DNA from: Moniliella sp. 'wahieum'
Lineage: Eukaryota
Assembly: GCA_003971905.1 (NCBI GenBank)
Contig: RSEE01000013.1
Span: 434,001-498,000, forward strand
Length of the DNA: 64,000 nt
Reading direction: 5' to 3'
Of this stretch, positions 9,561-64,000 are shown in pieces (the stretch's first letter is position 1; each line of letters starts with the position of its first letter). The notes under the pieces were generated by a model. The model saw only the letters and a program-made list of their open reading frames with translations. It was not told the DNA's origin and did no database searches. Position numbers and translations under genes: made by a program.

Positions 9561-9992
9561 GGTGTGGGCTTTGGCAAATATATCGAAGTGGTGGCAGGTG
9601 AGATAGGCGTCGGTAGGAAGGTTGTAGGACGGATGGGGTGGTGGTGGTGGGGGTGGTACGAGAGGGGGGGGGGGGGGGGGTCTTTTTATGCCCCCCACCC
9701 ACGCCGGAGCTCGAGGGATCGGGGGCTCTGCTGGTGGTTTCGCAGGGTCTGCATGGCCAGGGGTTATTCATCGCATATACTATTCTGAAGCGGTATATAT
9801 GTGCACCCCGGAGTTCCGGCGTGAACTGGTGCGTGCCCTTGGTGGTCGTCGCATGCGAGCAACAAAAGTCGGGGCCATGTCCTTCTGGCCACTGCACCCC
9901 ACGCTACCTCCTCATCCTACCTTGTTCCATCCCTGTCCTCGCCAAGCCGGGCAAGCGTGCTTTCATCAAAAGGTTCGGGCCAAGGGGAAGAG

Positions 9993-21358: not shown

Positions 21359-22893
21359 GGACGTCTCTCTGCAAGGAGCGCGGATGTAATGGGCTGCAAG
21401 GCCCGCTATTCTCTGGGTTCCACAATCTCCGACCCTCGATCACCGACCAGCATCGGCGTGCTGCTGCTGCTGCCTGCCTGCCCCGGCCATCCTGCCTATC
21501 CACGCGTGTTCCTGCCCGCCCGCCCTCCTTCCTCCGCGGCTTCCGGCCGTGCATCGGCATCAGTCATCGGTCATCATGCATCAGCGGTGCGTCATCTATG
21601 CATGCAACCAACGTCACGCGTCACCCATCCTTTGCGCACACCGCGCTTGGCGCCTGGTGTGATGCATGATGCATGCACCCCGAGATTTCCTTTCAGCGCA
21701 TCTGCTTCGGCCTTCGACGATAACGATAACCTCCGCATTCCGCCTCCCGCCGTTCCGCTCCTGGTGCCACCGTCGACTATGGCCGGCCGTCCTGGTTCGG
21801 GTGCCCAGCACGACGCTGGTGCCTCTGCTGGCCATCACTTCGACCCCTTCGTCTAGCGCCCAGGCAACGTGCTCTTTGTCAGGGGCACCTGCACACGTGG
21901 GCCGCACCATCGTCGCGTCATGCATCATTGACCCCATCATTTGCAAGCTGCTGGGATCGGAGACCAAAGGCCACAGCTTGTCCGGATGCAATGATTTATC
22001 TGTTCTTTGCATCCTGGCTCGCTGAGCCGACCACGCGTGCGCCGCAGATCCTTCTGGAATGGGTTGAATGGAAATACGGCTACGTGCGATCTTTACGCGT
22101 ACGGCGTGGTAGCGGCCGTCGCGATGGCCGCATGGGATGGTCCTATAGCATTTGGCGGCCAAATCAAATGTAGTCCACCTCTCTGTTTTTAGCCCTCTTA
22201 AAAGGTGTGACCAAAAGACGTCCTCTATGTCGGGGAAATGACCAGCTAAAGAGATGCATCAGGATCACGATACGGGCAGTGGTGGGACCATCGTCTTGCT
22301 CTGTGCGGTAGACCGACATGGCTTGTTCCAACGCGCGCATCTTGTGGGCGAGGGCCGAGGGTGGGGAGGAGGTGTCTTGTGGGGGGCTGATGTGGAGAGG
22401 CGTGAGGCTGAGGGCGTGAGGGCGTGAGGGGGAGCGTGAGCACGGGGTGATTGAATATTGAACGTTGAACATTCGGATGGCCCCACTGGGCTCGGACAAA
22501 CGCAGGCTGCCCAGGCGCCCAGGCCCTGGCCTGTGCACTGGCGTGCCGCGTGCTGCCAAACGGGGGTGGCCTGGTGGGGGCGTGGCACACTGCCCCTGTG
22601 GCGGCGCCACGCGCGCTTGCGCTCTGCTGCCTCGCCGCCGGCAGGCCAGACAGCGGCAGCAACGCACCACGCAGCAGACACCAGGCCACACCAGCTGCCA
22701 GCCTGGCCCATCGCCTTGGCTGTGTCGCCCCCGCCGCTCACCGCCCGCTGCGTCGTCCTTGCCTCTGCTCCCCATCTGGCTGCCATGCCCCCCCCCGGCC
22801 CTGTTCCTGCGCCCAGCATGCCCCCTCCGCCCGCCCGTGCGTCCTGCCTCCTGCCCTCTGTCTAACCCACGCCCACGCCCCGCGCCCTGCTGA

Positions 22894-29096: not shown

Positions 29097-30145
29097 ATGC
29101 CTCACCTTCCTCCGCAACTCAAGTCGCTCGTGCTCTCACCCACCTTTGCAGGTGGCCGCCTGGCCAAGCCGCTGCAGCCGCCCAAGGCGGCTGTGCTCAC
29201 CAAGCTCTTCCAGGACGTCGAAAGCTCCGCAAGCAAGCAAGGTCTCGGCTGGGGCGAATGGCTGTCGATCACGACCGCCAGCCTGTTTACTCTCGACTCG
29301 CCCGGATCGCTCCAGGCGCTGCACAAGTTCTCCGCACCTCCAGCCTGGAAATCGAGGAGCGCACAGCGCGCGCCTCCTTGACCCGCGAGGTGGGCCTCAA
29401 GTGCATTGGGTTTGTTGGCATCCCCAAGGTCATCAACAACCTTGCCGCTCTCCGCAAGGCAGTCGAGACGGACGCCGAGCTGGTCTCGAAGCTCTCCCTT
29501 GAACCTCGCAGGTAGGTCTTTTTTCCGTTCCGTGTACCCCCCCCCCCCCCCCCGAGGCTGGGAATGCGCTGCTAACGTTTACCTTTCTCAGGCGCGTGAC
29601 AAAGGACAACATTGGCTTGGTCAACAAGTCGGCGTACGGGTTGTGGGACAACATTTACACCCCGCTTTCGGAGCGGCTGATTGATGTGCTCAAGAACAGT
29701 CATCCCGATCTGCCCGTGTTTATCATTGAGAACGAGTATGGTCCGCTGTTTGCCTCGCCCGGCTCGTTCCATGATCCCGCTCTGCCCGAACCGGCGTGGG
29801 ACGTGAACCGGCTGCGTACCTCGCTGGTTGCCATCTCGGCACTGCGGTCGCAAGGCGGTGTGGGCCCGCAGGTCACGTCGCATATTTGGGGGCTGCTCAA
29901 GGCCAAACCCTCCATCTCGTCCCAGGACGTGAACAAGGAAGGGTTGGAATGGCTCACGTCGGAAGAGGGGCAGAATGGGTGGTCAAGACGGTCGACCAGG
30001 TATGTGTCCATCGTGCATCCTATGTGTGGAACAAGGCAAGTCAGAACTGACTGTGGAACTGCGGATTTGACCAGATTGCCGAGGTGGTCGACGGTACCCA
30101 GAGGCCGAGCGGGAGCCCAAACCTGCGCCCAAGCCCAAGCTGTAA
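29097..30145 (+). CDS. AhpD/carboxymuconolactone-decarboxylase-like fungal protein (Pxp2-like); introns ~29512-29591 and ~30000-30074
   Basis: REVGLKCIGFVGIPKVINNL; LWDNIYTPLSERL; SHPDLPVFIIENEYGPLF; RLRTSLVAISALRSQGGVGPQVTSHIWGLLKA. The last exon ends KPKL*. Confidence 0.75.
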
Positions 30146-32193: not shown

Positions 32194-33655
32194 GGCGAGG
32201 GAGAGAAGGGGGAGCAGGAGTTTGGCGTCCAGGGGTGGGGTGCGGGGTGCGGGAAGGATGTTGGTCCGACTCGATGGCAAGGAGGATATACAAATGTCGG
32301 CTTTTATACTGGCAGCAGGGCAAAATGGTCTGAATGTGCCCGGAGAAATGTGGGGTTGCAGCCGAGAGCTGCACTGCAGGAGTGTGCATGCGGCACAGTA
32401 GGGCACAGCAGGGCATCGCCTGGCATCGCACGGGCCCGCAGAAGCGAGACGGCTTAATTTGAGGCTTAGAGCTTCAAGCTTCAGGCTGAAGCTCTGAAGC
32501 CTCACTAGCACTAGCACTCAAGCTCCAAGCTTCAAGCCTAAAAAACTTACGGTCTGCATGTAAGGCCCAAAGCCCTAAGGCCTAGCCACTAGCCAGTACC
32601 AGGAGCAAGTCGTAACCTGAATTAAACCAGTTACTAGGTACTGTTACCATGTTACCGGGGTACATGTGGTAAGGCGGTCGCACTGCTATAAACAAGTTGG
32701 TTCAATCAAAACCTGGATGCAGCCCAAGACAGACCAGATGCCCGGACGACCGGTGATGGATGTCATGCATGTCACGCATCATGCACATCATGCGTCATGC
32801 GCTGGAAGCACTTGCCACGCAGCCAAGGCAGAGCGACGCATCATGCTTCCTGCATCATGCATCATGTGTCACATGTCACATGTCACACGTCATGCATCAG
32901 GTATCATGCATCAGGCATCATGCACCAAGTAGTGAGTGCGGAGTACTAATGGCTAGCTTGACTTAGCTAGTGCCTCAGACTGACGCATAAGGCCGAGGTC
33001 TATTAGGCCGGTCACCGGTCAGCGCCGGTCAGCAGTGATCTCAGCTGGTTAATAGGGTCACTAGGTCACTAGGTCACTGGTCGCCAAAAGCGGTGGAGGA
33101 TGCGCACGTGACCGCATGACCAGTAAAACTAGTAAAGCTCCTCATGGGCCTCATGCATCATGCATCATGGGCCTCATGCCTCGCCCTGCCCTGCTCTGTC
33201 TTGTGAGGCCGCCAGATCACAGGTACACCTTCCTTGCACGGCGATCGACCATCCCGAAAATGGTCCAGCAAGCGGCAACAGGCGGCAACGTCAACGTCGT
33301 CAGCGTCAACCCTCAAATCCCCAATCAAGCTTCAAGCTTCAAGAGGCAGTTCATCGCTCATTAATTTCATTAACGTCCAACTTGAACATTCATCGAATTC
33401 ATCGCTTCAAGCTTCGGCTTCAGCTTCAGCTTGCCCATGCTCAGCCGAGCGCTCACTTGAAGATCGGCATCGACTCGGTTGCACCGATTGCTGCATCCCA
33501 GCGCATGCCGTTGTGCTGTTTGCCACACGCCCCCACTCGAACCTCTGGGCTGAGCTCAGCCGATGGGAGATCACTCGATCACGACACCATAGCAACCATC
33601 ATCCGCCTCAACGAGTCCGACCTACCCTGGTCCACTCAGTCTTTCGACCACCATC

Positions 33656-43299: not shown

Positions 43300-46200
43300 A
43301 TAAGAGAGACCCCCCAGACTGACTAGGTTGCCACCGCGGGGGGGAAATTTATCCCCCTGTGGAACACCACGTCACATCCCAGTTTGCGCATGCTCGTCCT
43401 CTATCCTTTACCGTCATGCCGGGGACGCGCAGCAGGCACACGGTTGCAATGACGCTGCGAAGATGCATCTGCATGATGCGTGAGGCGTGAGGGGCGTCAG
43501 GCCTGTGGCCAGCCCGAGGGTACTGCCTGCTACTGCATGGTGTGGCATGGTGTGGGAAGCTCTCAGCGGCATGTTTGGGACGAACGGATAAGGAGGAAAG
43601 ACTCAACTCAGTATACTCGCTACTTTCCGTATATACTCAGTACGCAACGTCTCAACGTCCCACGTCCAACGTTCAACGTTCAGCTCACTCGGCACTACAC
43701 AGCTCTAAGGATAGCATAGTACATTGTGGTGCCCACAACCCCGGCACTATACTAGCCCCAAAGTGAGGAACGCACCGGGACGAGGGGGCTCCAGTCACGA
43801 TATAGCCACAGTGTACTGAGAGCAAGCCCTCGGCTTGGGTAGACATATCACATGGCGTTTTATTGTTCCTTTCGGAAGAGGTGCCGCGCAGTGGGACCTT
43901 GTGCGGGGCTGCAATGCCGCGCTGCTGCCGCTTGGGCCAGGATGTGTCAAGCGCACCAGCTTAGCGCTAAGCTGGTGCGCCAGGAGGCAGACAGGTGGCA
44001 ACACGGAATCGAGAAGGAGCGAGTGGGAAGGCGGGCGAGCGTTCAGTCTCTGGACACACCGAGCGCCAAGAGCAACCCGGCCACTTGTCGAGCACCAGCT
44101 GGGTGTGCAACGCGTATGGCCGACGAGACGCTGCGCCCACGGGCGTCGCCGGGTGATAGCAACGGGGCCAGAGGAGGGGACAAGTGACTCCTCGAGTGGC
44201 TAGTGCTAGTGACCAGTGAATAGTGAAGCTTGGAGCTGGTGGCTAGTTGCCGGAACGAACAACTAGCATACCGTTTGCATTGCATTGCGTTGGGGTGCGG
44301 TGCTGCGCTGCCAGGTACCGCACAATATTGCATTTGGGTTGCCCGCAGCAGGCGGCAGGCGGCGCACCCATCATGCATCATGCACCAACGTTTCTCGGTT
44401 CAATTGTGCACAGTCCTTTTACAAGACTGCCTGGCCAGGCAAAGCCAGGCAGGAGGGGGCAGTGGCCCGTGGGCGAGACAGCAGAGCAAGTAATGCCATT
44501 CGATCGTCGGGCCCATCGCGGGGTGGGGGTGGCAGAGCGCACCAGAGGGGGCAGCAGGCGGCAGCCGTGGCCAGGAGGGCCATGTGCATACACGGGCCAT
44601 CCGTGGTACCTGGCTGGAGCATTTCCAGCGCCCAGCCCCGCTCAGCCGCTGATGTGCTCAGCCACTCATGTACATACACCATGCATTATCCATCAGTACT
44701 CAGTGCATCAGGTCGTCCCGCGTCACTGATCCCGCGATCATCGATCATCGGACTGCGGAACACACATGGCCGCCCTAGTGCTCCATCCGACGAACGATTG
44801 GGGCTCGGCGCTCGATGCGCTCGATGAGCTCGATGGGCGATGGGCGCTGGGCCATGGGCCATGGGCCATGGGCGATGATCGATGGACGATGGGCTATGGG
44901 CGATGGTCGATGAGATCACTGAGCAGTGGGTTAATGGATGTGGCTGCTGGGTGCTGGGGGCGTGTTGGCCATGAAGCCGGCCAGCAAAGGCAGTCGTTGC
45001 CGACACCATCCGTGAGCGATATCAACGTTACGCGTTACGTTAGAAAGGCAGGGTGTACATACGCCCATGGCCGAAGAATGCGCATGTGGCATGTGCATGG
45101 GAGCTGGCGCGAGGAGGCCTGAGGGCATCAATCATTGATATTCGCTTCCGATCACGGCTCACCGATCACTAATCATTAATCATTAATCATTAATCATACA
45201 TCACATCATGCATCATGCAATCATGTGTGCCACGCATCACGCATCATGTATCATGCATCACTAGTCACTGGGCGCACCATCCCCGAATCCATCATCGAAA
45301 TCTACATGTCGGGTGTCGAAAATTGAAATCCATGCCGAAGACACGGTTCCTGCCAACACCGATTCCACACTGGTGTACAAGCCATGTGTGGGATGTGCCA
45401 CTCGCCGACCCTTCGGATTGCCCGGCTCCGTCGTAGGCCGTATATCATTACGTGAGTCACACGTCACACGTCACACGTCATTAGTTACTAGTTACTAAAT
45501 ATTAATTACTAGTTGCTAGATCACTAGCCCCACGCACTCAAAGACTTTGTCACATGCGAATATGTACACTTGCTCCCGCACGCCGCACGGTGCACGACTC
45601 TCCTAAATTCAAAGCGCTAAAACCGCTGAGCCTCAGATCTCTGATCTCAGAGCCATGGCTGAGCGCACTGAGCGCTCGCTGAGGGCGCTAAGCCGAAGAT
45701 TCTGTGTGATCGATGATCTTTGAAATTTGAAGTTTAAAGTCGAAGCGACATGTCGAAAAGTAATGTTTAAATTTTAATCCCCGTCCATGTCACTATCCGC
45801 AGCCACCAGTCGCTACGTATCCTCTCCTTTTTCGCAGAAAGCACGCCGAGTCGGGCTTAAGACCATGGGGCTTTTGGATTGTGTTCGGAGTAGCAGCCTG
45901 AGGCCTCAGCCTGAGGCCTGATGCGTATGAGTGCGTGCGCGCTCAGCTTGAGTAGCGCTAAGCTTAGCCTGAGCGTGTGACAGTGACATGTCAGTGACCT
46001 GTGACATGCGGGGTCTGAGATTTGAGGGCCTAAGGACTAAGGAGATAGCAGGAAGCAAGTGGGGCGAGTGTTCGCTTTAAGGTACCGGTACCCTCGCCTT
46101 TTTCGACTTGGAATTACTCCTGTACACTCTTTGTTCTTCAGCCTGCGTCGTACCTTCATTCATACTGTCGGATGAGGTCGATGAGGCTAACATTTCTGGC

Positions 46201-49200
46201 TGGAATCGCCAGAGTCGCCGGCACCCCCCTCAATCAGATATCGTGCTTTACTAAGCGCTAATGCCGGCCATGGGCCTGGTTACTAGTTACTAGCCGGTTA
46301 CTTGGCCAGTCCGGAACGAAAGTGATTCTAGCTGCCGTGCGGCGTCGAGTACCACACTGAGAACCAAAGAGGACTCGTACTCAATATTCAAAGTTCAACT
46401 TGCAAAACAAGTACCCTGTTGCATCTTGTTGTGTGGCCAAAAAGAAAACCTGTGACTCTTGTGGCTTGGGGAAAGGGTTTGATTTGGAACTTCGTTCTTA
46501 CTATATCTACTTGTACAGATGCATGCTGCGCGCTACGCATGATCGGTGATCGGAACCTAATAACGATGATCGATGATCGATATCCTCAGGTACTTAGTAC
46601 TTACTTATTCGCGAGGGAGCGTGTGACATGTGACATGACATGTGACAATAGTTATTGTTACTTGTGACGCGTGACACAACGATTGACATGACAAGCCCGC
46701 ATCGCCCTGCCTCAGCATCCACGCCAAGTAAGAGTGCTCTCAGTTCTTAGTTGCTCAGCCCTGAGTATCTCAGTGCTAAAGCTGGCTGAGCCTCAGCGGC
46801 TCAACGGCAGCACGCACTCTTGGCCGGCTCCGCTCTCAACTCCGCCATCGGACATCATCGATCAGCGATCAGGTGCAGAACCAGGCCGATTGTATTCCTG
46901 ACAGAGTATCGAGTACTGAGTTACTGAGTTCTGATTAATGAACTGATTTCTGACCTCTTCTGGGATGTGGGATCTGGGCTCAGCGACAGCACGCGCTCGG
47001 CGCTCAGCCTGAGCGCTCACTGGCATCATGTCTCGCACCAGATGTTCAGCCACTGTAGAAGATAACTGCGTCAACGTGTCAACTTCAGTGCCGTATTACT
47101 TCTTCTTCTAGCGGGCTGGCTTTCCGGAGAGCTAAAGGCGGTGAGGCTGGTGACGCGGGTGATGCGTGACGGTACCAGGGAGGCCGCCTGAGGCCTCAGC
47201 CTGAGGCTTCAACCTTCAACTTGAAGCATGAGAGATGCAGGTGTAATATGCAACAGAATGGAATCAATGCGCCGAGATCAACACAATGCACCGGTGTGCG
47301 CGCCACCCGTGAAGTGTGATACGTGTGGCATATGTCATGCATCATGCATCATGTGAAATGGCGCAGCCATCAGTGCGTCAGTGCATGAGCGCTCAGCCCA
47401 ACATTCTTTACCTTTTGCGTATAGCACTCCGCCGTGGCGCGTGACGCGTGACGCGTGAACCGCACGTTTCCGGCTCAAACACCGGGGGCCGCAGGGTTCT
47501 TCGACCTCGTCAAGCGTGACGTCGCGGGTCATGCATTATATCGATTTCGATCATCGATCACCGATCACCAGTCATCATATGCTACCGGAGACTATCATTA
47601 TAGCACTTGGCACTTCGATGCATAAGGCCTAAGGGTACTTGGTAGGGGTTGACTCGTCGTTAACTACTAACTAGCTGTCAAAGTCTTGTGAAGCTGTAAA
47701 GCTTAAAATGCTAACCAATAACTAGAACAAGTACGCAGTAACTAGTAACTGCTGCTGGGAAAAAGTAACTCGCAAAACTATTGTAACTCGTACTCAACAG
47801 TTCTTCTGGCCCCGTCGCTGTTTCGCCGAAAGAGGGAATGTGGAGAGCTAGCACATGCTGCCCTCAGATATTGAACGTCAACGTGTCAACGTTCAACGTT
47901 GCCGCGTGACGCGCGACCGTACGGCGTATATTTTTACTCACGTTTTACCGCGTTGCTGTGGGTTAGCTGGTGGGTTACCGGTACCGGTTGGCGGGTCTGC
48001 TATCTTAGTCATATGTTACCGGTTCCAGCGTTATACGTGTTACAGGCTACCGCGGAGGGAGCATGTGTCCAGCGCTCACTGACACTTGTCTTTCACGGAG
48101 TGCTCTCCTACCTATCCGACTTCAAGCTCTTTTCACTATACGCTTCAAGCTTCAAGCTGGCTTTTCAAGCTTCAGTGAGGCTCAAGAGCGCGCCCACTGC
48201 TTCCCGCTTGAAGCTGAACCACGAAGCCTGAAGAACCGCCTGACCCTTGAACCTTGTTGGAACTCACAGCGCTCAGGGCTCATTATTCATTGAAGATATT
48301 GAAGCTTGAAGCTGAGAGCCCCAGCTGGAAGAAGTTCTTGTAGCTGGGGATACGGATGGACTTGAAGCTTAATTCATCATCATGTTGCATGTGAAGTCGG
48401 TAGGCGACCAGATATATGAGCGAGAATCCATATTCAACGTTACACTTCAATTCAGTACTTTATTCCCTCCTCAGGCGTAGGAGTTCCGTTGTTTTTGCTT
48501 CTGTTTTCCTTGTTCGGCATCCAAGCTCTGCCTAGCCCCTGGCGGCGACTCTTGGCTGCTGTTGATGCATGATGTACATCTGTACAGGCGTTGCTAGCTG
48601 GATTATATATAGTTGACCACACCACCACCAGATTGCATCTCCTTCGAGCTCGAGGGCCATCAAGACTTCAGGTCTCATCACATTCAACCTGTTGCCCTGG
48701 GACTGCTGTTAGTGGCACTTCCCTATAGTTATAGAGATTTGGTCGAATAGACTTTTGGCCTGCGCCGCACTCCCACATGGCGCCTCCACTTTGTTCCAAT
48801 TGTGATCAAAAGTGCCGCACGTGTGTATAGTAGGCACCGCTGGCGCATTCCTCTCTGTTCTTCCTTATCACCGCAACCTATTTTGCTCAACTCGTTACGC
48901 GTTACCGGTTACCCCATTCTCGCTCATCTGCTTCTAATTGCTCAGACCCCGACGTCTGCCTGCCGTAGTACGTCGCTACACAAAAACGTTCCACGACGTT
49001 AATCCCAAATGATCGATACGCGATCGATCTCGATGAGATCTCGATCATCGAGCGATCCGGATCGGCGTACATCCTTGAAGAACTTCAAGCTTAGCTCCAC
49101 GCCTGTGGCTTTGAAGCTCTGAGATCTGAAGCCTGAGTTACTGAGTACTGACTCAGTCTGAGTAGTCTGGGTACTGTGAATTAGTTGCTAGTTACAGCTC

Positions 49201-49540
49201 AGACTGAATATTGGGTACTGATGGTATTGAGCGCGTCACGCGCAACTCCATCACCTTTGGTCACCGGTCAGGGGTTCTTGACATCCACTTTCAATATTCA
49301 ACGGCCGCAGCGCGCGCGTGTGGGTTGGTCCAGGTTGGTCCGCTTTTTGCCAGACACGATGAATGATTAATGGGGCATGGTGCATGGTGCATGTGTATGG
49401 TGCACTCAGCCTGAGGCTGAGGTGGAGGGTGTGTGATTCTGAGGCGCGGGGCAGCAGGCTCTGAGACGACAATGTGCATGTCACATGTCACTGTCATATG
49501 TCACGGGCCCTGGGGCAGGGGGGTTTAAGCGCTAAGCCTT
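43300..49540. repeat. Gene-poor region dense in short palindromic period-7 repeats (A-NNNN-T hexamer + 1 nt)
   Basis: (ATTAAT-C)x3 at 45175-45195, (ATCGAT-G)x2 at 46569-46581, (ACGCGT-G)x2 at 47444-47457, ACGCGT-T-ACCGGT-T at 48897-48910. No credible ORF. Confidence 0.8.
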
Positions 49541-51292
49541 TTAGTGTAAATGGGATACATTTACAATCTCTTGATGAAGACCGTCACGGAGTCGACTCCT
49601 AAGGGTATGGTCGCTCTTGGGAGGCTTGTTGGTGCATCCGAAAACGTTGCCAGGGACAAGGATATAATAGGCCTCTCGACGTAATAGCAGGGGCGACTCT
49701 CCTTTTGAGTGGCGAGAGAGGCTGCGCAGGAACCCCAGGGCAATATAGTAAAAAACGTGTCTAAGAAAGGTATTCATATCCTCCGGGACGGGAAACGGGG
49801 TTAGGGAAGACAACGTTACCCGAACAAGGACTGCAGAGCCGGAACCGGGATGGGAGCTGAGACTGAAGTAGGCTGGGACTGAATGTGGAGGACGAGAGAG
49901 AAATGATGGGGAGATGGTTGTTCTATTCCGGGAAGAAGATTCTTAACAGAGGAACGATACGGAGAGAAAGGGGGGGGTCGGACGGAAGACATGATTACGA
50001 TGAAATGGTATGACATGCTAGTGTATTTACAATCACGCCAACACTGAAAGCTTCACGGATTGGATACGGTCTATAAAGCCGAACACTGAGCGGCTGATAA
50101 AAGCTGAAGCTGTGGAGATGGGAAGATAAGAGGTGAAGAGGCGGCGGAGAGCAGAGGAGGCAACTATAAGAGAACAGAGAGAGTTATCAGTATACCGTAT
50201 ATGCTTTAGAGAAGACGGGAGCTAAAAGACGTCCACGGATCATGGATAGAAACCACGAACACATTGCTTTCAAGGCATTGCTGGGGAGACTAAAGGGAAA
50301 AAGCACAGCACTGGAGAGGGAGAACGGGGGGCCCGGTAGACGGGACTGAGGAGCAGTCACCACAAGGCAGTCTGTCTCGGGGAGGGAACCATGAAGCGAA
50401 AGCAGACTCGCAGGACTGAGTTCCCGATTAGGACGAAGCGTGGGTAAAAACAAAACCAAGGGACGACTGTCGTCGCCACGGATTCGCAGGTCGATGGGCG
50501 CTCGCGCCACCGGACACGGTGTGGTCATACGCACAGTCGGTGGGAATGTGTGTGTGATGTGAGGCTCAGGCGTTATGTGCACCGTGAAGTGCACATGATG
50601 GTCCTCGTGGGTGATGCAATCGCGATACTAGTAGTATAGTGGTGCTGGTGGCGCTCTAAGCCAACCACCCAACACCACCCTTCATTCAGAGAGGGACATC
50701 AAGCAGTCACAGCCGCCACCAGACCTGGCTTCGGATCAGAGAAGGCAGAAGGAAGAAAACATTGGGGCTGCTGGGTTAAGGAAGGACTGCAGGGACCTTG
50801 GCCTATAACGAACACATGAAGCCAGGCTGTTGTGACCAAGAAGAGAGACAAGTCATCGCGGGTTCGATTAACGATTCCCATTCGAGGGCCTTTCTTTTTT
50901 CCGGAGTACGCCTGATCATTCAATCTGTGTTGCCACTTCTCCCATGCCAGGCTCGTGAGGAGATGATATAGTTTCCCAAAAGAGAGAGAGATCCTCTGCA
51001 GCATTGGCCCTATTGCATGCCACTTGCCGCCCTCGTATCTATATTGTGCGCATTTAATTACGCCCCAGGTTTGCCTCTCCCTCATTTCTGCTCGCTTTCC
51101 TCAATTCGATGTTCCCTTTATGTCCGTGGTTGTGATCAGCTCCATATTTTTTGAGACAGTTGCAGCCATTGATTGCGGCCACTTGGACACGGCGCAACAC
51201 AGTTCTGTGTTCAACATGTTCAACATCCAAAAGCCATAAACAAGTGTTGTGCGCTGGCTCAGGGGAGAGCGGACAAGCGACAAAGAGTCAAA

Positions 51293-58925: not shown

Positions 58926-60992
58926 CCGCCATAGTCTCAGGTCCCAATGCACACTTATGCTCAAGACCCTCGCCGTGGTTCGAAGTATGCTCACTGCACT
59001 GTACGACCAAGTTCCTTCCATGCTGTTCCACCCGCTTACAAGACAAGTAGGAGTCGAGCACCGAAGCCTGTGCAGTAAGAAATTATCCTTTACCCCAGGG
59101 GAATGCTCGGTCCCTATAGCGCCACAGATTTCGCCGTGGGGAGGGCCTTAGCTACAGAGACGTGTTCACCTGCCTTTTTCTCTTGATTCGGCTGTTCAGG
59201 ACGCAAATCTGTGTTCAGTGCATCCGCACGCATAGAGAGACGGACAGAGAGGCGCGGATGTAGTAGTAGCTGCGTTAGTGCGAAGAGTGGGGGCATCATC
59301 CCATCGTTCCCCTGGTACCGGCAGTGCATGGGAGTGGGGAGTAGGATGAATCAGCCTTTGGTGGTGGGAGTCGAAGCTGTAGCTGTAGCTGATCATTGCA
59401 GCAGCAGCGTTGTGATGTTGACAACAACAGACAATCGGTTGTTTTTGAAAGCACCTGCTGGCGTTCGACGATGCCGCAAAGTACTATGATAATGCGGTTG
59501 GGCTGATGAAGTGGATGTCCTTATTAGCGAAGTCCCGGCCCCAGGGGTATGGATGGTGCTGGTTGGCTGGCAGTGCACCAATAGAGCGGGGTAGTGGGGG
59601 TCGGGCAACGATTGGGGCCGAGAAGGGAGCTAGGGTAACCGGTAATGATACCTGACTGGGCACACAGAGAGGTAATGACGGGAATGGCGGACAGGTGGGC
59701 AAATGCGAAAAGCCTGGAGGCTCTGCTTGACATTTGAAGCCCCAAGTTGAGCTGGTTGGCAGTACCAGGCGGCCCCGTTCCGCCTCTGTTCCGCCTCCGA
59801 GGTGCCTTCCCTTGATTAGCCTGATTGCATCCACGCCATCTCTTCCCCTGCCTTGTTCGTCTCCCACAAATACACTCGCCTGGGTGAGTGGGAAAGGGGC
59901 ACTGTCCGGCTCTGCCCCCTTGCCCTAGCCTGCTTTTCAAATTTCTAACGCTTAGCCTGAGAGCGCTGAGGCTCAGCGCAGCAGCTGGACACTACTCAGA
60001 CTGAGCACTAAGAGTTACTCCGAAGCGTGAAGCTTGAAGCTTGAAGGTTCGGTTTGACGTTAGTAACTGAGTAGTGAGTAATGAGTACTACTGAGTACCG
60101 AGTAAACGTGAAGCTTTAAGCTCTTCAAGCGTCCCGCCCGCTTCAGCTTTGCAAGGAGCATTGAAGTTCACATCCGGTAACCCGGCCCACATACTGATCA
60201 CCTACCGAGTCACCGGGTCAAATCGACAGCCAAACGGCCGTTAAAAACAAAACAAGTCCATTCGTCGATGATCGATGACGATGAGATGATGTCGATGACG
60301 CACATGATGTCCAGGGAGTGGTCCGCGAATGAATTTCTGCTGCTGCAAGGATGCGAACTACCCAAAAGAACATGCCCCACAGAGACAAGTTGCTACGCCT
60401 GTGGTCCTCATTCCGCGGCATACTACACGCATACTCTTCGGTGTAGGAATGCTCCTCAGGAAAGCTCAGGCCTCAGGATGAGAGCCACAGGCACCCTCAT
60501 TTATTCGTAAGATCACAGGCAAACAGCATGAAACCAAGTCCACCTCTCTCTCTACTGTCCCAGGTTGCTGAGAGGTGTTATAGGGAACAGGCTTCAGAGC
60601 GTTAAGCCCCACGTCTGAATCACAGTACACGGTAAATTAGATGGATGGGGACACAATTTTGTTGTACAGGTGAAGATGGAGCATGGGATGACCGGATGGG
60701 ACACAAGAGAGAGGAAAAAGTGATCCAGTGGCAAAGATGGAAGAATGGAGCAGGGAAGGCGCGGCGAGAGTCAATAGAGATGGGCGAGAAATGCAAAGGT
60801 GACAGCAAGGAGAACCTGGACCACTGGATATGCCAAGAGTTGATGGTGACGACGGGGTAGATGTGGCTAATGGGTGCCAACAAGCGAGGCCGTATAGCGG
60901 TGGGAAGAAGAGAGGGGGGAAAGAGAGAGAGAGAGCCAATCAAGGCAGTAGACGCCAGTGCCAATACAAGAAAGAGCACGAAGAACAGACTG

Positions 60993-62070
60993 TCACCTGC
61001 CCGCCATAGGCAGATCCAGCATCTCATCTGGGCAGAAGGGGCGGTACGTTCACCGCCTTCGACCAAATCGGACCAACTGAGTTTTTCGCCTGCAAGGATC
61101 AGGCGGGCACCAGCATGATACTGGCCCAGGAGCACAGCATAGAGGGAACGAAGGTGCTGGTTGACGCGCCACAGGCGCTGCTGCACAATCCGCGCCTCTC
61201 ATCTTCTGATCCTCGTCCACGGCAAACAAGGCGTCCTCGACGACCAAATGAGCGGTCTTGCCTTGGTCAGCAAGGTGCTGGGCACGAGTTTCAGAGTTTG
61301 CTCTTCGAGGAGGAGGGAAAGGCGGGGAGGAACGGCCATGGCCTTGACGCCCCGATCGCCAGGAAGAACGCCGCTCAGTGGTTGCAATCTCGGTGCAGTG
61401 AAAGACGATACGATGGCTGCGGGAATTAGTTGGTCAGACTCAAGCGGGAGAAAGGGAAGGATGAAGTGAACGTACCCATTGGGGCCCTTGGCGTGCTTAG
61501 CAACATTGTGGGTGCAGCGCGCACAAGGAGACACGACATTGTAGCCAACCACTGACCCGCACCCATTGCATCCCAAGGTCTGGGTCAGGCAGTTGCAAGT
61601 CCGTTCCTTGGCCGGAGGCTCGTATCCGCACTCGTCGCCAAGCAGCGTATCGGGGTGGTAGATGGGACTGCAGTTGGCGGGCATTGCGTCGGTACTGAAG
61701 AGCGTAACATGAGGCTTGAGCAGAAGAACCGCCTTCATGCCCCGGTCGGTGAAGAAGGTAGAGCAATGCGCGCAGCGGACGATATAAACTGTCTGCCGCA
61801 TGCCAGCCTTCTCATTACTGGAGATGGGGCGCTGGTGGATACTGGGGTTGGAGGGGACCGAACGCTGGGCAGGCGGTGAGGGCAAGGGGGGGCGAAACGT
61901 TTCCGGGCGGGAGGGGCATGTCGTACAGCGTGGAGAGCGAGGAACTGACCGAGGCAGAGACGAGGGGCGGAGGGGAGGCGCGCGCCTGTTGGAGCCAAGG
62001 GGTGGCGAGATTGTCGTCGTAGCAGGGCGGAAAGTGAGCGGTGGATGCTGCATCGCAAGCTGGATGCCAT
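60993..62070 (-). CDS. FAM72-family Cys-rich (Yippee-like) protein; intron near 61400-61474
   Basis: VYIVRCAHCSTFFTDRGMKAVLLLKPHVTLFSTDAMP; RTCNCLTQTLGCNGCGSVVGYNVVSPCARC. Probable end MAGR* at 60993. Confidence 0.85.
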
Positions 62071-62685
62071 GGAAGGAGAGTTGAGCTAGTGATGGAAGTT
62101 GGAGAAGAAGGAGAATGCATGGCAGACGACGGGGGGGTTATATGAGGAAAAAGGTAGTTACTATCAGGGAGGAAGGGGCTGTGCAAACCAAGCCTATGCA
62201 GCCACGAGCGTCACGCATGACGACACACACACGATCAGCGATCCGCAATCAGCGATCAGCTGCCGACTATCCTCCACTGGCTCGGCCAGTGCCTTTCTGC
62301 TGCCGGTCGCAGCGGCATTTCACACGTTGGATGTCACATGTCACATGCCGCACGTCACAGGCATCACACGTCAGATCTCAGGATCTCAGAATCGAATCTG
62401 AGACACAATGCAGTGACTGGGAGCTTGGCTCTGCTCAGCCTGAGCGCTGAGGCTCAGCCCTCCCTCGTCTGCTCCCGGGGGAATCGCCACGAGAGACAGC
62501 ACTCAAGCCGAGGGCCGAGCAGTCGGTCCAGTGCCTCGGATCATCGATCACTCGATCACTACTCGTAACGCGTAACTTGAGGGCGTTGCAGATTCCAGGA
62601 GGACCACAAAAGCACCCGAGAAGCCAATAATGTGACGTGCTGAAAAGTATAGTCACCTCACTTCACCTATGGACACGAGGAATGC

Positions 62686-62730
62686 ATGGTGTATGGTGTA
62701 TGGTGGGTGTATGGTGTATGGTGTATGGTG
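62686..62730 (+). repeat. (ATGGTGT)n heptamer tandem repeat, about 6 units with one interruption
   Basis: atggtgt atggtgt atggtgg gtgt atggtgt atggtgt atggtg. Confidence 0.85.
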
Positions 62731-64000
62731 CACTTTGTTCCATAACAGCAGTGCTGCACTAAGCCTTATGCCGCTTTTTCCGAACGTGTACAACAGTGCC
62801 GGCGGTTTGCCCTAGGAGGCTAGTGGTTGCCCATTGCTGCCTGGGGCTACTTCAGGCTACTCCCTGGATTCATGACATCATGCATAGGACGTCCGCGTTA
62901 CTGAACCTTCATCGACTTCATCGATCATCATTAACACATGCATCATGCATCATTAATCATTATCATTAATCATTCTTGAAGCTAAAATTAGTCGCCAGTC
63001 TCAGTTCACCCTATTCTTAGTTTCTCATTTCCTCCGCATGGTGGCTGTGGCATGTCCCCATGTCATGCATCACACATCATACATCACTCATGACTGTCAC
63101 CTGTTGCGCATCTGCATCACCGGCCACCGCACATTGGTCACCGGCCCTTGGTCCCCGTTTTGCTTGTTCCACATAGTGTGTGCATAATGTTTGTCACACA
63201 ACGGCATCTTCACACTTCATCACATGGGCCTCTGAAGTATTACTGAAAGTAGGGAGAAATAACACAGAAGCGCTGCAATTCTGTGACTGGTAACCAGTAA
63301 CGGTAAGCGGTAAGCGGTAGCCACCCTCTGTATCCACCATCTTTCTCGGCCTCCCGTGCCACATGCCTCCTGCGTTATCCTTTCGCGTAGACTCGTGTCG
63401 GGCTATGGAAAAGATGATCCGACGATCAACGTCCAACCTTCTCATGATTTTCCCTCTCTCTTTTCGGCGATTTCAAGAAGCTGCCATACCATATTGGATG
63501 GAATAAGCCTTCGGTTTTTACCATCAACAGTAGCGCCAACACAGAGCATTAAAAAAGCTAAGGTATTATACAACGACTCTTCTGTAAATTGGGTACTTAT
63601 CTTCCATCTCTTTCCTCTAACTATGCATTATACAGTGGTATAGCAAAGTACAGCGCATCAGGGCCGGCGAGGGCATGTATAATACATGTGTTGTGCGCAT
63701 ATACTCTTCTCAGGTCTCCCACAACGTCTCTCGTCATCCGTTTGTCACGCAGTTCTTCTCGGCCGTTGTCACTGTGTTCTATATTATGCATGCAGGGTAT
63801 ATGGAGTAACTAGTAATGACGCGTTGGATTACCCGCTCTGCGCACTTTGATCTACATATCTACATGAATACTTATCCCCTCCCTGCGGCCCATACGGGCT
63901 TCCGGGCCTAGTGTCAAAGGCTTCAAGCTCCAAGCTTAATGAGCGCTGAGCTTCGAAGTCCCAAGCGTCTGTTGACATGGACTTGAAAGAGGCACACAAG

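Follow-up and report, generated by a model that had tools for sequence, protein, structure and literature searches.

A 64,000-nucleotide stretch of Moniliella sp. 'wahieum' (contig RSEE01000013.1, positions 434,001 to 498,000 of the forward strand), referred to below as the window, contains short chains in which different palindromic hexamers are joined in one seven-base register, and these chains raise the question of whether their symmetry is actively maintained or arises in some other way. A preliminary description made from the letters alone had singled out three such chains, at 22451-22470, 48897-48911 and 62938-62958, as the best evidence that the pattern is a rule, their compensated base changes suggesting that symmetry is actively created or maintained. 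The chains belong to a lattice with a simple rule: in non-coding DNA a triplet T-N-A is followed by a self-complementary tetramer (N4) and by the same T-N-A again, the period being exactly seven. This rule is striking and, as far as the literature shows, apparently undescribed, and the lattice is a lineage-specific feature of non-coding sequence in the nuclear genome of a basidiomycete.

The T-N-A lattice

Palindromic N4 occupied 114 of the 284 TNA-N4-TNA sites of the whole window (40%), against a window-wide palindromic-tetramer rate of 6.0%, and 71 of 226 sites (31%) once identical tandem neighbours had been dropped by removing every site whose N4 equalled the previous or the next in-register 4-mer (binomial p ~1e-31 for the excess at TNA). 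The latter fraction is the check that the preliminary description had called for, and it lies far from chance. Among the 16 anchor types of the form XnY only TnA was enriched, the remaining 15 giving 3.3-7.1%, which bears out the preliminary statement that the pattern is a rule going beyond independent simple repeats. Sequences simulated from Markov models of orders 1, 3 and 5 (40 runs each, used for site and chain counts alike) contained 7.6, 7.2 and 20 palindromic TNA sites, respectively, versus the 114 of the real sequence.

The middle base of the anchor was copied directly: among the 114 palindromic sites, 97 had the same N in both anchors, 10 had complementary N and 7 some other combination. 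Palindromic N4 were present at 97 of the 186 sites whose two spacer bases agree and at 17 of the 98 whose spacers differ. Where it was shared by both anchors, the middle base was C or G in 80 of the 97 palindromic sites, with no significant strand polarity by region (32 of 56 neighbouring loci agreed, p = 0.20). The cores comprised 15 of the 16 palindromic tetramers, TGCA (20 sites), TCGA (13) and AGCT (12) being the commonest and TATA absent, and their first base x was T in 40 sites, C in 29, A in 26 and G, the rarest, in 19. Such use of nearly every palindromic tetramer makes a single motif recognised by a protein, or the end of one transposon, unlikely as the basis of the sites. The N4 is arbitrary apart from its self-complementarity, and the restrictions lie in TNA, in the period of seven and in the direct copying of N.

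Two unrelated eukaryote-like metagenome contigs, taken as negative controls, had 0 of 8 and 0 of 16 palindromic sites, and the lattice is no general property of eukaryotic DNA. Relatives of the window sought among metagenome contigs were represented by distant matches only (37% identity; 69% over 29 residues). The full-text literature searched, which did not cover subscription journals, yielded no account of a palindromic seven-base lattice anchored on TNA in the nuclear genome of a fungus.

Exact tandem 7-mer duplications numbered 73, compared with 3.8 in order-3 Markov simulations, and duplications of unit 6 and unit 8 numbered 57 and 11 (13 and 1.4 simulated). Head-to-tail copies of the tandem-repeat kind therefore exist, but the sequence of the unit is constrained: 39 of the 73 consisted of a palindromic hexamer plus one base (10.9% by chance), 36 of these 39 having the form A-N4-T, and by our reading of the list each of the non-palindromic tandem 7-mers with TNA differs from a palindrome by one base. 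When pairs of TNA were scanned for symmetry across gaps of different lengths, gap 4 (lag 7) carried the 114 of 284 sites, while the symmetric fraction at gaps 2 and 5-9 (lags 5 and 8-12) was at or near chance; gap 3 (lag 6) gave a second, weaker enrichment, restricted to complementary spacers (32 of 57 symmetric, 25% by chance). Odd palindromes of nine bases, TCA-GSC-TGA or TGA-GSC-TCA, recur in the window (20550, 32481, 45906, 47004, 47196, 49406, 62435 and others), and some of this type reach 15-19 bases, for example at 45901-45919, 47000-47016 and 59963-59979.

At lag 7, identical 5-base sequences on either side of a 2-base reverse-complement filler were counted 17 and 16 times against 1.9 simulated for each count, and this combination of direct repeat and reverse-complement filler occurred mainly at lag 7, lags 8 and 9 giving 0-1. 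Palindromic hexamers formed 43 pairs at a distance of 7 and 13-32 pairs at each of the remaining distances between 1 and 29. Identical hexamers made up 22 of the 43, 19 of them A-N4-T by our count; the 21 differing pairs showed no excess over the totals of 13-32 at the other distances, and only their A-N4-T class with a shared spacer stood out (5 pairs).

The elementary site was dissected into three symmetric objects, namely the palindromic N4 (E) and the odd-palindromic seven-mers to its left (L) and right (R), each made of two bases, TNA and two further bases. The 284 sites were distributed over E only (27), E+L (29), E+R (32), E+L+R (26), L only (16), R only (17), L+R without E (3) and none (134). 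Because L-only and R-only sites are fewer than E+L and E+R sites, the symmetry of N4 is the primary one; L or R in the absence of E was present in 19 and 20 of the 170 non-E sites, slightly above the ~11 expected by chance. An origin of the 12-base sites as decayed 14-base duplications was rejected, since it would make L-only and R-only equal to E+R and E+L, where 16 and 17 were observed against 32 and 29. Solitary TNA in repeat-rich stretches formed an odd palindrome with arms of at least 3 in 16.8% of cases, against 6-9% at other centres, and these odd-palindromic sites may be targets or remnants. On the forward strand, array ends appeared asymmetric by hand tally: among arrays of at least 14 nucleotides the form TNAxy(y'x'TNAxy)n was met 6 times and its mirror form 0 times, and (N4 TNA)n arrays were likewise 6 versus 0 for their mirror form, too few for an interpretation.

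Mixed chains and their neighbours

The strings quoted in the preliminary description are all present at the positions given for them, and their neighbouring units do differ by two complementary central bases; however, all three chains run on in register into a non-palindromic unit that had been left out of the quotation, and the earlier account was accurate but selective. Site 1 (22451-22474, from the sequence and Tandem Repeats Finder (TRF)) is TGA-anchored and reads TTGAATA, TTGAACG and TTGAACA in register, with ATAT, ACGT and ACAT as N4, the last of which, in the hexamer AACATT, is non-palindromic; the corresponding TRF row (22450-22473) has period 7, 3.4 copies and 82% matches. Directly upstream, in a G-rich stretch, lies an 8-base GGCGTGAG array of 4.2 copies (22399-22430). 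Site 2 (48895-48914), which is TTA-anchored and gave no TRF row at a score of 30, reads GTTACGC, GTTACCG and GTTACCC (N4 CGCG, CCGG and CCCC), the last N4 belonging to ACCCCA, where A replaces the expected T and the register is lost. Site 3 (62937-62974, from the sequence and TRF rows 62937-62953 and 62949-62974) is TCA-anchored and consists of ATGCATC twice, ATTAATC, the 6-base ATTATC, ATTAATC and ATTCTTG, so that its N4 are TGCA, TGCA and TTAA, then, after the 6-base unit, TTAA and TTCT.

Adjacent differing palindromic N4 between TNA anchors were found in 4 chains, each with one spacer base, compared with 0-0.15 in simulations, and mixed chains are not a product of chance when set against random sequence. 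Chains of three TNA with the same spacer numbered 50, of which 16 had identical N4 (palindromic in 11) and 34 had differing N4; among the latter both N4 were palindromic in 4, one in 20 and neither in 10. The variant neighbour of a palindromic unit was thus itself palindromic in 4 of 24 cases, compared with 6% at the base rate (p = 0.052), and in 4 of 13 cases against 11% (1/9) for neighbours at an even Hamming distance (p = 0.048). Palindromic N4 drawn independently at the rate seen in the chains would be expected to give 9.2 mixed pairs with both members palindromic, versus the 4 observed (p = 0.03). Converse junctions, with the odd palindromes intact and the N4 chimeric, were found in 3 cases.

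At site 1 the series ACGT, ACAT, ATAT consists of single transitions, the first of them at a CpG, and the passage through AACGTT, AACATT and AATATT therefore needs no compensated double change. The two strands of a palindrome share their context, so that context-dependent mutation tends to hit mirror positions, and all three compensated pairs represent the same base change on both strands, as this shared context would favour. The mixed chains are real, but they are weak evidence for maintained symmetry. The preliminary inference that they point to compensated change and active upkeep of symmetry finds no support in the 4 pairs against 9.2 expected or in the single-step series of site 1. Nor do the chains form the best evidence for the pattern, as that description had held: they are few (4) and are outnumbered 5 to 1 by the 20 in which a palindrome adjoins a non-palindrome. 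The strongest evidence is the statistic of the solitary sites, palindromic in 31%.

Islands, arrays and host DNA

A gene-free island dense in lattice lies at 44500-49600, where 28% of the sequence is covered by exact lag-7 segments of at least 11 nucleotides (3.8% expected); the 2-kb bins over 44-50 kb hold 18, 23 and 13 palindromic sites, together 54 of the 114, and lag-7 identity over 44000-50500 is 0.353 versus ~0.25-0.26 at neighbouring lags. A second island (62000-64000) reaches the end of the window, with a lag-7 identity of 0.342 and a coverage of 21% (3.1% expected), and a similar intergenic stretch at 32400-33500 has an identity of 0.364 and a coverage of 27% (5.2% expected). Palindromic sites number 12 in the last 2-kb bin (62-64 kb), 17 in 60-64 kb and 17 in 30-34 kb. 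Exact lag-7 coverage in genic parts is ~4.4-4.8%, near expectation. In the lattice-rich stretches lag-14 identity is only 0.28-0.30 where lag-7 identity is 0.34-0.36. The islands at 44500-49600 and 62000-64000 have a G+C content of ~51% against 57% overall and lie in gene-dense surroundings. They contain no Pfam match, no tRNA or Rfam family that might have served as a target, and no dispersed repeats detectable by self-BLAST; the islands are not transposon graveyards.

The longest mixed array (32834-32925), when read in odd phase, comprises three CATCATG units, three TGTCACA units and decayed CATCATG units; TRF reports it at 32838-32924 with period 7, 12.4 copies and 63% matches, and at the CATCATG/TGTCACA junction at 32862 the N4, TGTG, is chimeric and non-palindromic. 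Another array (45165-45260) has four ATTAATC units, with 4.0 exact copies at 45170-45197, and passes into ATGCATC units and then ACTAGT; units of TTAA type adjoin units of TGCA type at two loci, here at 45.2 kb and at 62.9 kb. Some of the seven-base arrays do not follow the TNA rule, as at 44831-44912, where TRF finds a CGATGGG/CCATGGG array with period 7, 11.7 copies and no TNA anchor, its CCATGG-G units being palindromic hexamers with a C..G outer pair. A perfect 30-base palindrome at 43951-43980 is centred on TNA-GCGC-TN'A with complementary spacers and folds at -15.8 kcal/mol (z = -4.8), a value that no shuffle equals; it may represent an inverted-copy version of the lattice.

The gene content of the window is nuclear and intron-containing, with exons of RPS3, EF1-gamma, a kinase and PP2C among others. 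Exons recognised by Pfam in stop-to-stop open reading frames (ORFs) encode ribosomal protein S3, a P4-ATPase, HAD hydrolases, Pex2/12, FtsJ and a protein kinase, as well as PP2C, EF1-gamma, an SH3 protein, a BRAP2-type RING protein and a DEAD-box helicase, and the window contains no long ORFs of bacterial type. The EF1-gamma exon matches basidiomycetes, the best named matches being Malassezia, Tilletia, Tilletiaria and Ustilago at 52-57% identity and the best match overall being 76%, and the window is nuclear DNA of a basidiomycete closest to the Ustilaginomycotina, none of the named matches being a near relative. Its composition (G+C 57%) shows observed/expected ratios of 0.64 for TA, 0.85 for CG, a mild CpG depletion, and 1.17 for CA/TG. 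Homopolymer runs of 17 G (9664-9680) and 17 C (29537-29553) are also present.

Origin of the lattice

Single 10-mers fold at 0 kcal/mol and arrays of 2-4 units at -0.7 to -3.2 kcal/mol, values that shuffled sequences match, and hairpin stability was therefore ruled out as the cause of the symmetry; sites 1, 2 and 3 fold at 0, -0.4 and -3.5 kcal/mol, respectively. Inverted-repeat pairs of at least 9 nucleotides, 24-4000 bp apart and flanked by a TNA duplication, numbered 0 in the window, self-BLAST of the window yielded no dispersed repeats, and no transposase-type Pfam family, DDE included, was found in the window's 226 stop-to-stop ORF queries of at least 110 amino acids (one ORF being counted twice).

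The reading tentatively preferred, at a little under even confidence, is that the lattice is the scar of a mutational break-and-repair process that adds seven bases at T-N-A, acts repeatedly and is aided by slippage. A break with a 3-base stagger, the type of cut made by PIF/Harbinger-type nucleases, would occur at a T-N-A site; repair would retain both copies of T-N-A and would place between them four bases copied from one strand off the other. With a filler copied in this way any tetramer would occur and would nearly always be self-complementary. 'Any self-complementary tetramer' is not something that a protein can specify, so the symmetry must come from copying strand off strand; the identity of N makes T-N-A look like a 3-base target duplication of the PIF/Harbinger type, and the fixed addition of seven points to a precise reaction and not to ragged end-joining. 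Repeated hits or slippage at one spot would then give short arrays, and dense build-up would give gene-free islands of kilobase size. The mixed chains would be junctions of neighbouring unit types together with ordinary point decay, and not units that changed while their symmetry was held. Break, stagger and strand-copied filler are all inferred. No description of a break-and-repair reaction in fungi with a fixed addition of seven bases was found in the literature searched.

Each of the known systems compared with the lattice has one or two features in common with it and fails others. The T-N-A duplication made by elements of the PIF/Harbinger type is three bases long, and its middle base is free (PMC4561436). 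The lattice resembles these Tourist elements in its T-N-A direct repeat, whose free middle base is the same on both sides in 97 of 114 sites, and differs from them in that only four self-complementary bases stand between the repeats, with no element there and no transposase in the window. The usual PIF duplications are TAA and TTA, whereas the middle base of the lattice is mostly C or G. Sleeping-Beauty-type excision leaves a footprint of the duplication and a few bases of both inverted ends. Mariner/Stowaway footprints likewise keep the duplication and the terminal bases of the element (PMC4561436). The scars of both kinds are, like the lattice, palindromic and of fixed length, but they have a TA duplication and one fixed end per family, where the lattice has TNA and 15 cores. 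hAT, Transib and V(D)J recombination (P nucleotides) share with the lattice arbitrary palindromes copied from flanking DNA through a hairpin, and the 5-base repeats with 2-base reverse-complement filler described above fit them formally, although boundaries here are diffuse and N is uncomplemented. Their duplications are of 8 bases (hAT) or 5 bases (Transib) and their scars of variable length, whereas the lattice is fixed at 7. A hairpin through TNA would complement N, yet only 10 sites have complementary N and 97 have identical N.

Among organellar systems, the GC clusters of yeast mitochondria are short inserts of palindromic sequence that carry a target duplication of 2-3 bases and occur singly or in tandem (PMC4478555, citing Weiller 1989). 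Mitochondrial palindromic clusters are, however, 30-40 bases or longer and form real hairpins, whereas the lattice is nuclear, with a 4-base core and no structure; in place of the organelle location and stable hairpin of mobile clusters, nuclear genes and folds of 0 to -3.5 kcal/mol were found. Koll et al. are said to have described in 1996 'ultra-short invasive elements' of this kind in Podospora mitochondria. Fusarium mitochondria have (A)n-TATA-(T)n palindromes, which are distinct from the lattice, as described in PMC7218506. In bacteria, the heptamer repeats STRR of cyanobacteria and GGGNATC of Xanthomonas represent an unexplained excess of period 7 in non-coding DNA; they are prokaryotic and have one or a few fixed units per genome, and the abstract of the source mentions no rule of palindromic units (PMC4692102).

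Several observations weigh against the break-and-repair reading. One simple 3-base duplication with a 4-base filler predicts that arrays should start and stop at TNA, and the boundaries observed are unlike this: the period extends into the first base of the flank in 68% of sites per side, independently, and in a hand tally array ends clustered at three joints, namely the TNA edge (15 of 72), the N4 edge (15) and the N4 centre (18). In the 48 isolated sites, defined as those with no further TNA in register, boundaries were diffuse, the continuation being spread over 0, 1, 2, 3 and 4 bases in 11, 10, 14, 6 and 7 sites on the left and in 18, 8, 10, 1 and 11 on the right. Chains with two or more units made up 14 of 99, too many for random re-hits, so that slippage or a strong hot-spot effect is needed in addition. 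The opening of a hairpin at the TNA end would give T-N'-N'-A and no arbitrary palindrome, and the chemical origin of the filler is thus not derivable from a simple hairpin at that end. PIF/Harbinger excision is normally precise and scarless, as stated in PMC4561436, the window contains no element or nuclease gene, and every count on the lattice comes from this single 64-kb window, a small sample.

Ordinary slippage, by which chance TNA-palindrome-TNA proto-repeats would expand as seven-base microsatellites and leave solitary sites and mixed chains as decayed arrays, is considered rather unlikely. It would fit the excess of tandem duplications of every size from 6 up over Markov expectation (4-8 fold), the diffuse array boundaries, the long imperfect arrays of 12.4 and 11.7 copies at 32838-32924 and 44831-44912, the 20 of 24 variant neighbours that are non-palindromic, as from decay, and the single-transition series of site 1. 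However, it leaves unaccounted for the restriction to TNA, one of 16 anchor types, and the palindromic cores (39 of 73 against 10.9%); flank-only remnants (16 and 17) are fewer than sites with N4 plus one flank (29 and 32), where decay from 14 bases predicts equality; a lag-14 identity of 0.28 against 0.35 at lag 7 means that most units have a single partner; and the units have no hairpin energy that would promote slippage. Active maintenance of symmetry, in which strand-switch (quasi-palindrome) correction or a similar process would carry a change from one half of an N4 over to the other and units would drift yet stay palindromic, is a good deal less probable still. The borderline excess of palindromic variant neighbours (4 of 24 and 4 of 13), the far better preservation of N4 palindromes than of flanking dinucleotides and the adjoining TTAA-type and TGCA-type units at 45.2 kb and 62.9 kb speak for such maintenance, whereas the 20 non-palindromic neighbours of 24, the deficit of mixed palindrome pairs (4 against 9.2, p = 0.03), the three opposite junctions with intact odd palindromes and a chimeric N4, the inability of a 4-6 base palindrome to pair with itself (0 kcal/mol) and the mirror-image mutations already favoured by the shared context of both strands all argue against it.

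Excision footprints of cut-and-paste transposons with a TNA duplication (PIF/Harbinger-like), in which two terminal bases of each inverted end are left behind, are improbable to the same degree as maintenance. The architecture is exactly that of duplication, xy, y'x' and duplication, 97 of 114 sites carry a direct copy of N, the added length is fixed at 7, and the T-N-A duplication of PIF-type elements and the terminal bases kept in mariner/Stowaway scars, both noted above, agree with it; yet 15 different N4 would require ~15 families with different termini. Although x = G is usual at PIF-type ends, G is the rarest first base here (19, against 40 T, 29 C and 26 A). The absence from the window of TNA-flanked inverted-repeat pairs, transposase domains and dispersed repeats, the normally precise excision of PIF-type elements and the continuation of the period into the flanks, which footprints do not predict, also stand against this origin. 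A selected function, as binding-site arrays for a dimeric DNA-binding protein or as structural DNA of the islands, is very improbable: the motifs do lie between genes and in gene-free islands, they have dyad symmetry around a free central base, and a second 9-base palindrome of TCA-GSC-TGA type recurs (32 of 57 at lag 6 against 25%), but no protein can read 'any tetramer, provided self-complementary', of which 15 of 16 occur, a density of 21-28% in three gene-free stretches is far above regulatory needs, and there is no hairpin energy. What probability remains beyond these four alternatives and the break-and-repair reading belongs to something not listed here.

As a mutational scar, the lattice would record break-and-repair at single-base precision, with a stagger of 3 bases, a templated filler of 4 and a net gain of seven; even if it is merely the product of biased slippage, there is an unusual constraint on which units expand. 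A further possibility, which must be called doubtful, is that the scar represents a new insertional process, in which a T-N-A-specific nuclease, possibly a domesticated one of PIF/Harbinger type, acts together with strand-copying repair to add per event a quantum of seven bases, made up of a duplicated TNA and an arbitrary self-complementary tetramer, and by repeated hits builds kilobases of gene-free DNA. If true, this would be, in effect, the shortest known self-propagating 'element'. Under the scar reading in general, the sites would be highly polymorphic markers and a test bed for the origin of short palindromes in eukaryotic DNA. With exact period-seven sequence making up 21-28% of three gene-free stretches, a gene-dense fungal genome would be able to gain non-coding DNA without transposon copies.

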